Shown piece by piece: positions 444-5,189 of a stretch of 6,480 bases of DNA. Source of the DNA: Candidatus Woesearchaeota archaeon (GTDB lineage Archaea; Nanobdellota; Nanobdellia; Pacearchaeales; GW2011-AR1). Location: NCBI GenBank assembly GCA_964519005.1, contig CAZFLO010000001.1, positions 25,521-32,000 on the forward strand, in the 5' to 3' direction. How positions within the stretch are numbered: the stretch's first letter is position 1; every line of letters begins with the position of its first letter. The notes beneath the pieces are model-generated. The model saw only the letters and a list, made by a program, of their open reading frames with translations, was not told where the DNA came from and made no database searches. The position numbers were made by a program, and so were the translations under genes.

Positions 444-495
444 TTTCTAAAGAAAGAAAACCCTGCGCCATTCTTCTTAAGGCCAGGTTCTTACC
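444..495 (-). terminator. Conserved GC-rich hairpin repeat, copy 1; probable intrinsic terminator or REP-like element after CDS 516..1244
   Basis: The minus strand reads GGTAAGAACCTGGCC-TTAAGAAGAAT-GGCGCAGG-GTTTTCTTTCTTTAG. This gives a 7-bp stem (plus-strand 462-469 with 481-487, one bulged C) and an 11-nt loop, followed by a T-rich tract. The core ends 20 nt after the stop codon at 516-518. Core 462-495 matches 3914-3947 at 32/34 nt, and tttctaaagaaa (444-455) is also shared. Confidence 0.45.
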
Positions 496-515: not shown

Positions 516-1244
516 TTATTTCTTTGATTTTTTTTCGTCTTCAATATCTGGAGGAATTGTTTTTGGATCCTCAGCTATTGTTTCCAAGGTTTCAATTTCA
601 TTAATACTTCTTTCGATAATCGGGATGAGCACTTTTTGAACGCCGGGATAAAATTCAAGGACAGTACCCTTCAAATTTTCCAGATCTTCTTTTGAATTGC
701 ATCCTATGATTTTTCTCAGAAGGATATCTGATTTTTGTATTGTTTTGAAGATATCCTCCCCTTGTTTTGCATTGTAGAAATCCATTGCACAATCAACCAA
801 ACTTTTTTCAGCGAATTCTTCTGAATCTTTCGGCAAAGCCAAATTCAATTTTTCCAGAGATTGATTCAGCCCTTCATGCAATTTCAGTAAATACTCTCTG
901 CTAGAGGTATTTCCCGGGAGTTCTTTCATTTGGTGAAAATGATTTTCCATAAAAGCGGTTAATTCTACGTACCTTTTGAAAGGATTCTTAATGTTTCCAG
1001 GAGGTTCCAGGAAATCCTCCATTATATCAAAATATTCCAGAGACTTCTTTAAGCTTCCAGAATGTGGGAAATTCTCCCTGCCATAGAAATCTTCCATAGA
1101 CTTCTTTAAGCTTCCAGGAGGTTCCAGGAAATACTTCATTATATCAAAATCTTTTGGACGCGGGTTCATTTGTTCCGGGTCCTCTCCCAGAAATGTTTTG
1201 AAAGGATTGTCTTCAATAACTACTACTATTACTATTACTGACAT
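516..1244 (-). CDS. Hypothetical acidic soluble protein (242 aa) with a reiterated N-terminal module region
   Basis: 729-nt ORF with an ATG start (1242-1244) in AT-rich DNA, where stop codons are frequent. No Shine-Dalgarno. The N-terminal ~95 aa are built from repeated short modules (NPFK, DFDIMxxFLEPPG, SLKKSxExF). The C-terminal ~140 aa look helical. No recognisable domain. Confidence 0.75.
   Translation of the reverse strand: MSVIVIVVVIEDNPFKTFLGEDPEQMNPRPKDFDIMKYFLEPPGSLKKSMEDFYGRENFPHSGSLKKSLEYFDIMEDFLEPPGNIKNPFKRYVELTAFMENHFHQMKELPGNTSSREYLLKLHEGLNQSLEKLNLALPKDSEEFAEKSLVDCAMDFYNAKQGEDIFKTIQKSDILLRKIIGCNSKEDLENLKGTVLEFYPGVQKVLIPIIERSINEIETLETIAEDPKTIPPDIEDEKKSKK
974..1208 (-). repeat. 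In-frame internal duplications within CDS 516..1244
   Basis: Three repeat pairs: 995-1033 vs 1112-1150 (39 nt, 2 mismatches, offset 117); 1035-1060 vs 1092-1117 (26 nt, 1 mismatch, offset 57); ttttgaaaggatt at 974-986 and 1196-1208 (offset 222). All offsets are multiples of 3. Confidence 0.9.
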
Positions 1245-1271
1245 AATTTTTAATTTTTAAGATTTAGAAAT

Positions 1272-1300
1272 TTGATTATTTTTTGATGTTAATTTGTGAA
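1272..1300 (-). promoter_or_regulatory. Conserved upstream element (copy J4) ahead of CDS 516..1244; related to both J0 and the J1-J3 junction family
   Basis: Shares ttgattatttt and aatttgtgaat with 410-432. Shares ttttttg..atgttaatttgt with the junction elements at 1780-1802 and 3067-3089. Lies in the 97-nt gap between two CDSs. Function unknown. Confidence 0.3.
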
Positions 1301-1327
1301 TTTTGTTTTTGTTTTTGTTTTTGTTTG
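1301..1327. repeat. Hexanucleotide microsatellite (TTTTTG)x3 perfect, with partial flanking units
   Basis: Reads ttttg tttttg tttttg tttttg tttg. The perfect units span 1306-1323. It sits immediately downstream of the stop at 1342-1344 and upstream of CDS 516..1244. Confidence 0.85.
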
Positions 1328-1341
1328 TTTATGGAAATTTG

Positions 1342-1767
1342 TTAAACTAACTTTACAAATTCTACTGTTTGTTTTTCGTAGGTCTTTGAAACGAGGCAAT
1401 CTGGTGAACAACTTAATTCTACCATTTTCAATGTTGAAAGCTTAATCAAAGCAAGTAGGGCCACTTCATCCGAAAGATCCTTATTGAAAGCAAGATTCGT
1501 TATTTGAGAAATTTTACATTTCCTTTCCCGCTCCATTATATAGAGAAGAACTCTTGTGTCCACTTCATTTATATCAGAACGATCTTCCTTCGAAAAGTAT
1601 TCTGCTAATACCTCAATAAATTTCTCTCGAGCCAGAATACTTTGTTCTGAGCCATGTTCTTTTCCCCTCGTTTTATTGGCCACAACTTCTAGCGAGACAG
1701 GGAAATCAAAGTCAACGTCTTCAAAATGTTTAAGTATGCTAATTAAAACTTGAAATAAATCTTTCAT
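1342..1767 (-). CDS. Hypothetical soluble protein (141 aa); C-terminal half has a winged-helix-like pattern (weak)
   Basis: ATG at 1765-1767 is embedded in conserved junction element J1. Residues ~70-141 (DTRVLLYIMERERKCKISQITNLAFNKDLSDEVALLALIKLSTLKMVEL...KQTVEFVKL) follow a helix-turn-helix-plus-wing hydrophobic pattern. This is pattern recognition only, with no profile search. Confidence 0.75.
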   Translation of the reverse strand: MKDLFQVLISILKHFEDVDFDFPVSLEVVANKTRGKEHGSEQSILAREKFIEVLAEYFSKEDRSDINEVDTRVLLYIMERERKCKISQITNLAFNKDLSDEVALLALIKLSTLKMVELSCSPDCLVSKTYEKQTVEFVKLV

Positions 1768-1800
1768 AAGATTAAATTGTTTTTTGTTAATGTTAATTTG
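1765..1800 (-). promoter_or_regulatory. Junction element J1 (36 nt, includes the start codon of CDS 1342..1767 and abuts the stop of CDS 1801..2493)
   Basis: Plus strand: cataagattaaattgttttttgttaatgttaatttg. Identity is 35/36 with J3 (3052-3087). It fills the whole 33-nt intergenic gap. On the sense strand it reads CAAATTAACATTAACAAAAAACAATTTAATCTTATG, followed by AAA. The repeat is certain; its function is unknown. Confidence 0.5.
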
Positions 1801-2493
1801 TTACCTGCTGATAAACCAATCTCCAACTGTTTTTGGATATTTCTTGGAGAGGAATTTGATTGAATAAATCAAACCTAAGAAAGATAAGAAAGATAAGATG
1901 AATAAACAATTTACTAATATTAAAATGGAACTAAATAATCCAAAATTTATTTCACCAAGAGAGATTAGCTTTTTTGCATATTCAAACCAAGTAATATTGA
2001 ATAAAGTTCCAGAGATTATAGTTGAAGAAACAAAAAAGATTCCAGAAATAAAAGACATCCACAAAGATAATTTAATTTTTCCTGTAATCAATTGAGAAAC
2101 TCCTCCCGTAAAAATACAGCAAATTAAATTTATTAATAAGATCAGAATAATAACAAACAAAGAAGAATCATAATCTCCAATTTTATTAAAAATTATTTGT
2201 ATCACTCCCCCAAAAGAGATTCCACTAATTATTGACATAATTAAATCTTCTTTTGAATATTCTTCAAAGTATAAAATTTTCATTATTACTCGAGAAATTT
2301 TAAAAACAATGAAAAACAACCCGAAGAAAATTGCTGCGTTTGTCAATACTGACAAAACTGTTTGAAGATTAAAATCATCTGCTGGAATATTTATCCAATT
2401 ATAAATCAGATTGATTATTCCGAAAACCAAAGTGAATTTAAGAGAAGTCAAAAGAATCCTTCTCCAAGTCCAGGAATCATTACTTTTTTTCAT
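1801..2493 (-). CDS. Hypothetical polytopic membrane protein (230 aa, about 6-7 hydrophobic segments)
   Basis: 693-nt ORF. ATG at 2491-2493 lies inside junction element J2. Hydrophobic stretches of 20+ aa occur throughout (e.g. FTLVFGIINLIYNWI, AAIFFGLFFIVFKI, LFVIILILLINLICCIF, FSSILILVNCLFILSFLSFLGLIY). Confidence 0.8.
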   Translation of the reverse strand: MKKSNDSWTWRRILLTSLKFTLVFGIINLIYNWINIPADDFNLQTVLSVLTNAAIFFGLFFIVFKISRVIMKILYFEEYSKEDLIMSIISGISFGGVIQIIFNKIGDYDSSLFVIILILLINLICCIFTGGVSQLITGKIKLSLWMSFISGIFFVSSTIISGTLFNITWFEYAKKLISLGEINFGLFSSILILVNCLFILSFLSFLGLIYSIKFLSKKYPKTVGDWFISR

Positions 2494-2526
2494 AAGATTA
2501 AATTTTTGTTAGTTAATGTTGATTTG
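2491..2526 (-). promoter_or_regulatory. Junction element J2 (36 nt, includes the start codon of CDS 1801..2493)
   Basis: Plus strand: cataagattaaatttttgttagttaatgttgatttg. Ungapped identity with J3 is 33/36. A further 9 nt separate it from the stop of CDS 2536..3054. Confidence 0.5.
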
Positions 2527-2535
2527 ATTATTTTC

Positions 2536-3054
2536 TTAAATTACGCCTTCTTGCCCATTGAAAAACCATCCCTTTCTATTTCCAAATAACTCAATTTCCT
2601 GTTTCAAGAAATTTTCTTGATCTCCTTTTGGAATAAACTTCCAAAGATTTTCTTTTTGATCTATTTCTTGAACGTGACCTTCCAAGAATTTTGGTTTGGG
2701 AAAATTCCATTCAATTCTGCAAGAATGGCCAGGAAATTCCTTTTCAAGTGATTGCCAAAAGATATTAATTGTACTCTCAACGCCATCTGAACTCCAGCAG
2801 GAATCATGATAACTTTTCCTTTTTATTTCTGTCCCTTTCCAAAATCCCCCCATTAATCCTTCATAAGTTCCTACGAAAACATAAGAGGAAGACCTTTGAA
2901 AAACAAAGTTTATATTCCGGTAGTTCGTTTCATTTCCTTTTTCGAAAATGAAGTTTATTGTTAACAGAAGAACTTTCTTGGGAGAAAACCTAGAGAGAGC
3001 TAATTCGACCAAGGTAATAATTGCCTGGGAAAGATCTATTTTTGGATTTTTCAT
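2536..3054 (-). CDS. Hypothetical soluble protein (172 aa)
   Basis: 519-nt ORF. ATG at 3052-3054 lies inside junction element J3. No hydrophobic segments and no recognisable motif. Confidence 0.75.
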   Translation of the reverse strand: MKNPKIDLSQAIITLVELALSRFSPKKVLLLTINFIFEKGNETNYRNINFVFQRSSSYVFVGTYEGLMGGFWKGTEIKRKSYHDSCWSSDGVESTINIFWQSLEKEFPGHSCRIEWNFPKPKFLEGHVQEIDQKENLWKFIPKGDQENFLKQEIELFGNRKGWFFNGQEGVI

Positions 3055-3087
3055 AAGATTAAATTGTTTTTTGTTAATGTTGATTTG
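3052..3087 (-). promoter_or_regulatory. Junction element J3 (36 nt, includes the start codon of CDS 2536..3054)
   Basis: Plus strand: cataagattaaattgttttttgttaatgttgatttg. Identity is 35/36 with J1 and 33/36 with J2. A further 30 nt separate it from the stop of CDS 3118..3858. Confidence 0.5.
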
Positions 3088-3117: not shown

Positions 3118-3858
3118 TCAAATTACGAAAAAACTTAGCAAAGGTCTTTGAGAAATTATCTCAAGTAATTCCCCCATTCTATTTAACATTTTTATCTCAG
3201 TTTTAGAGAGGTCTTGGCCTAAGTTTTCTGTCCACCCTTTCCAAGAAATACTAAAATAATTTTTCTCCCTTAATTCTTTCAAAAATTGTTTTCCTTGAAT
3301 TGTGAGAAGAGGTTCTGATTTATCATTACAGTTAAAGCAGTTTTTTTCCACCAGAAAATTCGCTGCATCAAAATTAATGGAAATCATTTCATCCACTTGT
3401 TTTGATTCTATTTCCAATAGGAACTTAATTGCTTCCAATATTGCTTTTGCATTCTTTTCTTTGGAAATACTTTTTTCTTTCCTAAATGTCAGAAATAATT
3501 GCAATAGCATAAATATTAATAAGTTTATCGCATGAATATAAAGGAAACTTTGAGAAGTCCAAACAAAAATAATTATTTGAAAAACAAGATGTATTCCGGA
3601 TAGAATAAAACCGACTCGGAGGAAATAATACTTGGATGTTGTTTCAAAAGCCATGAAGGAAATAAACATGGCAAGGAAAAAATAAAGAATGGACATTCCT
3701 AAAATTAGAGAGACCTCCCCAATTTCAATTAATAATTCCATCATCTTCTCCTCTCCAGAAAAAGGTTGAGAGATAAACCACCAGAGGATTGCTATAAATG
3801 CTAAAAGGGAAAATATTCCCAGGGCCATTGCATATTTTTCAATAAATTTTTTCGTCAT
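3118..3858 (-). CDS. Hypothetical membrane protein (246 aa): about 4 N-terminal TM segments plus a ~120-aa soluble C-terminal domain
   Basis: 741-nt ORF, ATG at 3856-3858, TGA stop at 3118-3120. Probably the first gene of a five-gene unit, since it follows hairpin repeat copy 2. The C-terminal part (ILEAIKFLLEIESKQVDEMISI...FLVEKNCFNCNDKSEPLLTIQGKQFLKEL) resembles a winged-helix pattern (weak). No Shine-Dalgarno. Confidence 0.8.
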   Translation of the reverse strand: MTKKFIEKYAMALGIFSLLAFIAILWWFISQPFSGEEKMMELLIEIGEVSLILGMSILYFFLAMFISFMAFETTSKYYFLRVGFILSGIHLVFQIIIFVWTSQSFLYIHAINLLIFMLLQLFLTFRKEKSISKEKNAKAILEAIKFLLEIESKQVDEMISINFDAANFLVEKNCFNCNDKSEPLLTIQGKQFLKELREKNYFSISWKGWTENLGQDLSKTEIKMLNRMGELLEIISQRPLLSFFVI

Positions 3859-3894: not shown

Positions 3895-3947
3895 TTTCTA
3901 AAGAAAATTTGTGCCTGCGCCGTTCTTCTTAATGCCAGGTTCTTACC
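3895..3947 (-). terminator. Conserved GC-rich hairpin repeat, copy 2; possible terminator or REP-like element after CDS 3970..4758
   Basis: Core 3914-3947 matches 462-495 at 32/34 nt. The stem is 6 bp (3914-3920 with 3934-3939, one bulge) with a 13-nt loop. The minus-strand tail CACAAATTTTCTTT is a poorer U-tract than in copy 1. The core ends 22 nt after the stop at 3970-3972. Confidence 0.35.
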
Positions 3948-4794: not shown

Positions 4795-5178
4795 TTATTG
4801 TTTTAAAAAAATTGTAGTTCCTCCAGGGATTTTTAATACCTGATACATCTCTCCCGAAATTTGAAACAATTGCTCTGAGTGATATTTCAAAGACAGATAA
4901 AAAGGTTCTCCAAGAATCATTTTGGAAATTTTAGTTCCCGAATTTTTTCTCTTTTTGATGTGAGAAATTATATAATAAATAAACCAGGAAAGAAAGATTC
5001 CAATAGAGAGAATTCCGAAAACCATTAAGAAAATCTTTGAAGAATCAGAAGAAAAATTTTCTAATTTGATCATTGAAAATAAATCATAAAAAAGATTTGC
5101 TATTTTTGCAAAAACCATTATTGCCCATACAAAGAACATTGCCCAGGCGATTTTTATTAAAATCGAAAGTTTTTTCAT
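4795..5178 (-). CDS. Hypothetical small membrane protein (127 aa: 2 TM segments plus a ~45-aa soluble tail)
   Basis: I trimmed the track ORF 4795..5271 to the first ATG (5176-5178, MKKLSILIKIAWAMFF...). The longer form starts at TTG (5269-5271) and would overlap the upstream CDS by 82 nt. The ATG lies 11 nt after the upstream stop (5190-5192) and is followed by cataaaattaaatt, which resembles the junction-element start cataagattaaatt. Confidence 0.7.
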   Translation of the reverse strand: MKKLSILIKIAWAMFFVWAIMVFAKIANLFYDLFSMIKLENFSSDSSKIFLMVFGILSIGIFLSWFIYYIISHIKKRKNSGTKISKMILGEPFYLSLKYHSEQLFQISGEMYQVLKIPGGTTIFLKQ

Positions 5179-5189
5179 AAAATTAAATT

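Follow-up and report, generated by a model that had tools for sequence, protein, structure and literature searches.

Archaeal core promoters combine a short B recognition element that is rich in A (BRE, 3–5 bp) beside a TATA box with a T(A/G) initiator, and leaderless mRNAs belong to the same anatomy (PMC7289017). In Haloferax, the BRE reads CGAAA, the TATA box reads TTWT and 72% of transcripts are leaderless (PMC4983044). Modular shuffling in T4-type phages is mediated by promoter early stem-loop (PeSL) cassettes, whose conserved motifs, promoter and terminator, are located between unannotated genes (Arbiol et al. 2010, PMC2839356; Comeau et al. 2014, PMC4122927). Cluster K mycobacteriophages carry start-associated sequences (SAS/ESAS); SAS are 13-bp, GGGATAGGAGCCC-like repeats located 3–7 bp from the start codon, which contain an AGGAG Shine-Dalgarno core and for which a role in translation has been suggested (Pope et al. 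2011, PMC3203893). Here, we analyse a repeated element, J, that precedes three genes on the minus strand of a 6,480-nt stretch of archaeal DNA (contig CAZFLO010000001.1, positions 25,521 to 32,000; hereafter the window, meaning this stretch at its full length) and ends in the start codon of each of them. We consider it probable that J is an ordinary archaeal core promoter module ending at the start codon, which was recently multiplied in a hypervariable island of a DPANN chromosome. As it stands, J is a well-explained feature and not a new kind of system.

J is a block of 39 nt, CAAATYAACATTAAC..ATTTAATCTT-ATGAAA, on the minus strand, of which the window holds three copies (J1, J2 and J3; Table 1), all finishing in the ATGAAA that opens an open reading frame (ORF). 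Scanning the minus strand with the pattern CAAATYAACATTAACAAAAAACAATTTAATCTTATGAAA returned J1 and J3 with no mismatch and J2 with three. The same pattern found no match in 200 dinucleotide-preserving shuffles, and a repeat search returned the J family too. The repeat is real and well beyond chance. A near-identical 36-nt element, start codon included, had been placed before three ORFs by a sequence-only reading of the window, which is borne out by these results, as is its observation that J1 fills the entire intergenic gap (33 nt, 1768–1800) after the stop codon of the 230-aa gene. The range of 33–35 identities out of 36 that it gave applies to J1/J3 (35/36) and J2/J3 (33/36) but not to J1/J2, which share 32/36. 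It had also pointed to the conserved ATG with AAA as second codon; this is present in all three copies but is generic, with ATGAAA opening 21 of the 34 ORFs in a 19-kb composite.

To place these numbers against a background, we used a composite of 24.4 kb of this genome, joined from JGI and ENA metagenome contigs that share exact proteins; the overlaps were checked and show no mismatches except two at one contig end. When the 36 nt upstream of each ATG are compared without gaps, 34, 32 and 30 positions are identical in the three J pairs, whereas the 903 promoter pairs of the composite average 13.8 (standard deviation 3.9), with 28 for the next best pair. The likeness between J copies ends sharply, at CAAAT on the 5′ side and at ATGAAA on the 3′ side. 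Within the composite, the exact 36-mer occurs in three copies only, while its boxes, CAAAT near −33 and AATCTT before the ATG, are generic. The possibility that the element is a general expression signal of the genome, which the sequence-only reading had raised against itself, is borne out by the boxes and, within these 24 kb, not by the exact 36-mer. The 33 nt before the ATG are free of G and contain no Shine-Dalgarno motif. As RNA, they have a minimum free energy (MFE) of 0 and no predicted structure, and every shuffle folds at least as well; folded as RNA and as single-stranded DNA of both strands, J reaches 0 to −1.5 kcal/mol, no better than shuffles. None of the 25 longest inverted-repeat pairs listed lies inside J, and no hairpin, dyad or direct-repeat symmetry was found in it. 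Searches for J relatives gave no match in IMG/VR and no real relative in GTDB genomes (10 single matches) or JGI metagenome contigs (13 matches); we regard these matches as chance or as one unrelated conserved gene start because their 6–10-nt gap bases and flanks differ from J.

The position of J relative to the start codon matches that of promoter signals elsewhere in the genome. A canonical TATA box, TTTATAAATA, starts at −29/−30 from the ATG of the 154-aa gene both in this genome and in a sister genome from the same samples (NCBI GCA_964527365.1, CAZGQV010000006.1), and likewise in two other genes of the latter. J is laid out in the same register as these neighbouring TTTATAAATA boxes, with CAAA at −33 to −30, T at −29, AATCTT at −6 to −1 (T at −1) and A at +1. 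Across the composite, the sense strand of the intergenic DNA (2.9 kb) contains 24 ACAAAT motifs where 5 are expected, 16 kb of coding sequence contain 13, and none is antisense. CAAAT starts between −36 and −28 in 15 genes, against 0–6 genes per neighbouring 9-nt bin; the binomial probability of this positional peak is P = 4e-4, or 5e-3 when the copies of J and of a second module, K (see below), are collapsed. The box also stands directly after terminator-like elements. Of 31 promoters, 23 have a pyrimidine at −1, and the A of the ATG occupies +1. A GAGGT Shine-Dalgarno-like motif is found in both genomes before L13, a gene internal to its operon, and in the sister genome before Cdc6; its absence from J is informative, since such motifs do occur elsewhere in these genomes.

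On its sequence, the simplest classification of J is that of a BRE/TATA promoter, of archaeal type, in front of a leaderless gene. It has in common with the promoters of Haloferax volcanii and Saccharolobus solfataricus (i) an A-rich BRE-like box beside the TATA position, ~26–30 nt before the predicted start, (ii) a pyrimidine/purine initiator at the ATG, with the pyrimidine at −1 and the purine at +1, (iii) the lack of a Shine-Dalgarno motif and (iv) a strand-specific, intergenic motif. Ordinary promoters of one genome have only the short boxes in common, in contrast to the 30–34 of 36 positions shared by the J copies. An archaeal host, with the transcription apparatus expected for such promoters, is indicated by archaeal genes for uS9, uL13 and L18e that are contiguous with the window genes. 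A promoter module located at the gene start explains why J ends at the ATG and why no Shine-Dalgarno motif is present. The A-rich, BRE-like CAAA (about −33 to −30) and the TATA position (about −29 to −22) would recruit TFB and TBP, each J gene would be expressed from a leaderless mRNA that needs no Shine-Dalgarno motif, and the J promoters would act as internal promoters giving rise to nested transcripts that share one terminator-like end. What a basal promoter does accounts for the boxes and for the distances between them, but not for the identity of the whole spacer. The full 33-nt identity, which goes well beyond what BRE and TATA need, may have arisen because the entire module was recently copied, or homogenised by gene conversion, in an island of accessory genes with fast turnover. 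As direct repeats, the copies may also allow homologous recombination to delete or rearrange whole genes. For a lineage without genetics, these observations provide a candidate rule for gene starts: CAAAT near −33, a pyrimidine at −1 and a leaderless ATG.

The window is part of the chromosome of an AT-rich DPANN archaeon of Nanoarchaeia type. Contig L045, which lies upstream of the window's gene string and is contiguous with it, carries ribosomal protein genes in the order L18e-L13-S9, along with a tRNA, a XerA-like recombinase fragment and a 705-aa DUF87/HerA-like ATPase. The S9 protein scores 148 bits with the archaeal model uS9_arch versus 76 with the bacterial model, and L13 scores 117.7 with L13_A_E (cut-off 98.9) versus 35.5 with the bacterial model. 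Named homologues of S9 come from an 'archaeon' (75% identity) and from 'Candidatus Nanoarchaeia archaeon' (69%). In the sister genome, S9 is 86% identical and the core order is the same, and Orc1/Cdc6 and a putative DNA polymerase small subunit (Metallophos; DNA_pol_E_B weak) are encoded near the core. A Bacteroidetes-phage reading, based on A-rich starts without Shine-Dalgarno motif and Bacteroidetes-like signal peptides, was ruled out by the archaeal ribosomal proteins of L045. The DNA of the window has no match among 50,697 phage records, tblastn of the LysM protein and of a portal fragment against phage records returned nothing useful, and a scan for sigma-70 promoters found 20 versus 25 expected, which is at or below chance. 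Hence, we read the window as a chromosomal island of accessory genes of an uncultured DPANN archaeon from an Antarctic-lake-type metagenome, and not as a phage or bacterial cassette array.

The three genes behind J encode unrelated proteins, in agreement with the sequence-only reading. In an all-versus-all BLASTP comparison of the 44 ORF products of the composite, the 172-, 230- and 141-aa proteins have no mutual match at E<1, and hhalign of a profile of 36 sequences of the 172-aa family against the other two J products gave probabilities of 0.06 and 0.12; these two comparisons rule out paralogy, and tandem duplication of genes is therefore not the cause of the repeat. An exhaustive HMMER search recovered 63 distant homologues of the 172-aa protein, ~150–170 aa in length, that share a SYHDSCWxSDG motif with invariant His83, Ser85 and Trp87. 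No relative of this family was found in Pfam or the PDB, and it may represent an uncharacterised family of small enzymes. Single-sequence AlphaFold models are of low confidence both for the 172-aa protein (alpha/beta; predicted local distance difference test, pLDDT, 61) and for the 141-aa protein (all-helical; pLDDT 44), and Foldseek searches with these models returned nothing below E = 0.05. The proteins of the window match no family in Pfam, PHROGs, NCBIfam or PADLOC, with LysM as the sole PHROGs match of the whole analysis, and Rfam and tRNA scans of the window gave nothing relevant.

J is one of several intergenic modules that are repeated within this island. The K1 module in front of the 242-aa gene has a 46-nt core that is identical (46/46) to that of a second copy, K2, before the 185-aa gene (contig L006, ~2316–2397), and the two also share further sequence on the 5′ side. 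K and J have the box CAAATTAACAT in common, and an (ACAAAA)4 microsatellite at window positions 1301–1324 is present in K1 and not in K2. Two diverged relatives of J had been listed by the sequence-only reading. The one at 1272–1300 is genuine and belongs to the K family, whose core recurs in L006; the one at 5176–5189 comprises only the 3′ box of J and not the full module. A third module, S, is a family of terminator-like stem-loops (GGYAAGAACCTGGC..GCGCAGG) with five copies, each located 19–51 nt 3′ of a stop codon. One copy carries a compensatory change from CCTG/CAGG to CATG/CATG. By its look, S would be a terminator, and the conservation of its sequence suggests that it was copied as a module like J and K. 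The sister genome provides a further case, a near-identical promoter pair (49/50 nt; contig L050, 239–288 and 684–733) before adjacent genes for a LysM-domain protein and a 130-aa protein, between which no similarity was detected.

Comparison of the two genomes constrains the age of the J copies. Their core genes are 78–95% identical in protein and ~82% identical in DNA sequence, whereas homologues within the island are only 30–46% identical and their promoters cannot be aligned. The start consensus across the island of the sister genome differs as well (TAAYTAAAAAATAAARTC-ATG). Nothing lies between the homologues of the 262-aa and 185-aa genes in the sister genome, which hence lacks the 246-, 172-, 230-, 141- and 242-aa genes. 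With island homologues so diverged, promoters unalignable and the J genes missing from the sister, the identity of the J copies (91–97%; 32–35/36) must be younger than the split of the two lineages, or it must have been kept by gene conversion.

A candidate case of recombination between module copies comes from one contig. L012 (ENA ERZ27315523, k141_429376; 1,322 nt) consists of the 141-aa gene, the 5′ part of K1, the shared core, the 3′ part of K2 and the 185-aa gene. Its junction (~955–1000) would correspond to a clean loss of the 242- and 217-aa genes through a crossover within the identical K core. The first 362 nt of L012 are identical to a portal gene of IMG/VR UViG_3300035698_003982 (35% GC). 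An 11-nt microhomology, TTTGATTTATT (~352–362), links this viral part to the 3′ end of the 230-aa gene, after which come J1 and the 141-aa gene. L012 could be a real rearranged virus–host recombinant or a chimera.

The closest analogue of this arrangement is the PeSL cassette, a functional resemblance and not a membership. In both, small regulatory modules that are nearly identical to one another lie between unrelated genes, most of them unannotated, in hyperplastic regions. Recombination between PeSL copies gives rise to insertions, deletions and replacements; the island described here has its J, K and S modules and one putative K1×K2 deletion variant. PeSL elements, however, belong to phages and join an early promoter of the bacterial sigma-70 type to a terminator stem-loop, whereas J is a bare archaeal-type promoter without stem-loop on a cellular chromosome, where neither mini-circles nor J-to-J recombinants were seen. 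A more speculative extension, which we offer tentatively and hold to be doubtful on balance, is that variable islands of DPANN archaea are remodelled in a PeSL-like manner: J, K and S modules would be copied between gene boundaries and would then serve as portable homology for deleting, duplicating and importing accessory genes, possibly by viral exchange, and newcomers would receive a working leaderless promoter. The near-identity of the J copies, the genes missing in the sister genome and the one putative repeat-mediated deletion variant together suggest how such islands may turn over surface and accessory genes. Gene turnover mediated by promoter modules in DPANN islands is the potentially new part of these observations; if true, it would be an archaeal counterpart of the shuffling of regulatory cassettes in T4-type phages.

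Several points weigh against J being a recently multiplied core promoter. The sequence at its TATA position, TYAACATT, has the right location (a TATA box is expected to be centred ~26–28 nt before the start) but is atypical, weak as a TATA box and a poor match to the canonical TTTATAAA of this genome, and the spacing of J is for this reason anchored on its CAAAT box and not on a clear TATA box. The proposed leaderless start at J is likewise read from spacing. The copy count of J covers 24 kb of the genome, and no J-bearing close relative was found with which recent copying could be told apart from selection. What is seen of recombination bears on K and not on J, and comes from one 1.3-kb, possibly chimeric contig with a virus–host junction; none of the approximately nine contigs that cover J contains a J-to-J recombinant junction.

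The strong conservation of J can alternatively be attributed to regulation. If J were a specific transcription-factor site overlapping the core promoter, co-regulatory selection would keep its 33 nt alike. Such selection would account for an identity that spans the TATA-to-start spacer, which the basal factors do not read, it suits three genes that are adjacent and co-oriented, and it is compatible with J being a promoter. J lacks, however, the dyad or direct-repeat symmetry that archaeal regulator sites typically show, the 24 kb contain no recognisable regulator gene, and K (46 nt or more), S and the sister pair show that duplication of whole modules is a habit of the island; we regard a regulator site as unlikely. 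Selection on translation is an explanation to which we assign a low probability. It holds J to be an intercistronic translation initiation region independent of Shine-Dalgarno pairing, that is, a G-free, unstructured A/C/U leader that loads ribosomes. The RNA of J is indeed G-free with an MFE of 0, and no terminator-like element lies between the 246-aa and the 242-aa gene, which makes read-through transcripts containing J likely. The distance from CAAAT to the ATG nevertheless equals the distance from the canonical TATA box to the ATG in genes that are first in their unit, CAAAT is also placed directly after terminator-like elements, where a promoter is needed, GAGGT-type Shine-Dalgarno motifs precede L13 in both genomes and Cdc6 in the sister genome, and a required identity of 33 nt is left unexplained. 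SAS repeats resemble J in position and orientation: they too are asymmetric, occur in a single orientation right before the ATG of genes from different families, and lie in the non-structural half of the genome. J differs from them in spanning 33 nt from −33 to −1 with no G and no Shine-Dalgarno core, which fits a transcription signal. The shared translational operator for an RNA-binding regulator or small RNA that the sequence-only reading had listed is unlikely as well, because a leaderless transcript would not contain J; it may apply to read-through transcripts but leaves the TATA-like register unexplained.

Mobility of the genes themselves offers two further explanations. Integron attC cassette arrays were reportedly described in Archaea by Ghaly et al. 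in 2022. Sites of the attC type are imperfect palindromes that fold as single strands, and the cassettes are usually promoterless. J could be the crossover site of a comparable site-specific gene capture, integron-like or in an orphan-cassette array, a prospect that we rate as very improbable. As in an attC array, unrelated small genes are parted by a recurring element and gene content varies between relatives, with the J genes lacking in the sister genome; moreover, two recombinase-like sequences are located ~16–17 kb upstream, namely a tyrosine recombinase fragment of XerA/integron-integrase type and a small ORF resembling serine recombinases. J is unlike attC and the dif/att cores of tyrosine recombinases, the latter made of two inverted arms around a spacer, in having no inverted repeats, dyad symmetry or hairpin, either as RNA or as single-stranded DNA of both strands, and each cassette has its own promoter, unlike integron cassettes. 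No integron integrase (IntI) adjoins the array. The tyrosine-recombinase fragment, found in the conserved core ~17 kb away, scores best with XerC, XerA and XerD and slightly lower with integron integrase, all below the cut-offs, and the recombinase of the sister genome (279 aa) is located in the conserved core beside ribosomal protein genes. In addition, the sole rearrangement seen sits in a 46-nt identity tract, as homologous recombination predicts. The cassette boundary or recombination site proposed by the sequence-only reading consequently survives in a weak sense, through the missing genes in the sister genome and the K crossover, but without hairpin or dyad, integrase or J-to-J recombinant; its suggested search for recombinase and phage genes around the locus yielded the XerA-like fragment by the ribosomal protein genes and no viral hallmark gene in the 24-kb composite. 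That J serves, within a mobile element, as the promoter of a dedicated RNA polymerase of a virus or plasmid is largely refuted and seems to us barely credible. Identity over more than 30 nt does resemble the promoters of single-subunit polymerases, and the ORFs are mostly unannotated and on one strand, but (i) neither polymerase nor viral hallmark genes are present in the 24-kb composite, (ii) the locus is contiguous with chromosomal ribosomal protein and tRNA genes, (iii) there is no match in phage records or IMG/VR and (iv) the J boxes are common to many other genes of the genome. Among the explanations put forward at the outset, a dedicated promoter plus leader repeated before each gene came closest: a repeated promoter is probable, but the genome is archaeal and not a phage module read by a phage polymerase, and with the leaderless geometry there would be no leader.

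Table 1 Coordinates of J, K and S elements and of neighbouring genes (window positions unless a contig or the distance from the ATG is given)
Feature	Position	Strand	Description
J3	3049..3087	(-)	Promoter module plus ATGAAA of the 172-aa gene; ATG 3052–3054
J3, BRE-like box	−33..−30 from ATG	(-)	CAAA
J3, TATA position	−29..−22 from ATG	(-)	TCAACATT
J3, 3′ box	−6..−1 from ATG	(-)	AATCTT
J2	2488..2526	(-)	Before the 230-aa membrane protein gene; 3 spacer substitutions; ATG 2491–2493
J1	1762..1800	(-)	Before the 141-aa gene; ATG 1765–1767
K1 intergenic module	1245..1341	(-)	Before the 242-aa gene; 46-nt core 1256–1301; second CAAAT at −30
J-like 3′ box	5176..5189	(-)	AATTTAATTTT-ATG before a 127-aa ORF; upstream gap 11 nt
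246-aa gene	3118..3858	(-)	Membrane protein; first in the five-gene unit; own, different promoter region
172-aa gene	2536..3054	(-)	Downstream of J3; uncharacterised family
230-aa gene	1801..2493	(-)	Downstream of J2; polytopic membrane protein; no family match
141-aa gene	1342..1767	(-)	Downstream of J1; predicted all-helical, low confidence; no family match
242-aa gene	516..1244	(-)	Last in the unit; preceded by K1
S stem-loop, upstream boundary of unit	3914..3947	(-)	GC-rich stem-loop, then T-rich run, terminator-like; 26 nt after the stop of the 262-aa gene
S stem-loop, downstream boundary of unit	462..495	(-)	Second copy in the window; 24 nt after the stop of the 242-aa gene
S stem-loop, outside the window	L037 1022–1055		
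S stem-loop, outside the window	L037 1487–1520		
S stem-loop, outside the window	L037 6750–6780		

All long ORFs of the window are on the minus strand (Table 1). The 246-, 172-, 230-, 141- and 242-aa genes form a run that is flanked by two S elements, and no S or other terminator-like element is found between the J genes. Two stretches of the window are in-frame coding tandem repeats: positions 1–161, with units of 48/96 nt in the 217-aa protein (YQKAEGDAFTIVAASS-type), and positions 985–1182, with units of 57–117 nt inside the 242-aa protein (EDFLEPPGxLKKSxE). Independent assemblies of different samples have two break points in common, at window positions ~2009–2028 in the 230-aa gene and ~3460–3484 in the 246-aa gene, and L006 has two single-nucleotide polymorphisms, at 2009 and 2014. 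The shared break points suggest co-existing strain variants in these two membrane-protein genes and are not located at J. The gap that precedes the 71-aa gene on contig L037 contains a five-codon mini-ORF, ATGAAAAAAAAAAATTAA (2051–2068), immediately after AAATTTAAATCTT, a sequence similar to the 3′ box of J.

At the core-side edge of the island, the 154-aa gene and the gene for the 705-aa DUF87/HerA/CedD-like ATPase form a pair that is conserved in both genomes (L045 2966–5083; L050 6379–8448). Nucleotide similarity between the two genomes stops ~17 nt before the first island gene. Within the island, a tRNA at L037 2564–2638 scores 34.8 bits in Rfam; it has an AT-rich acceptor stem and was missed by ARAGORN. 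A second tRNA (L045 2300–2385), with a long variable arm that by eye reads as Leu-like, adjoins the L18e gene, and a tRNA-like 3′ half with the T-arm CCAAGTTCGATTCTTGG follows the 417-aa gene.

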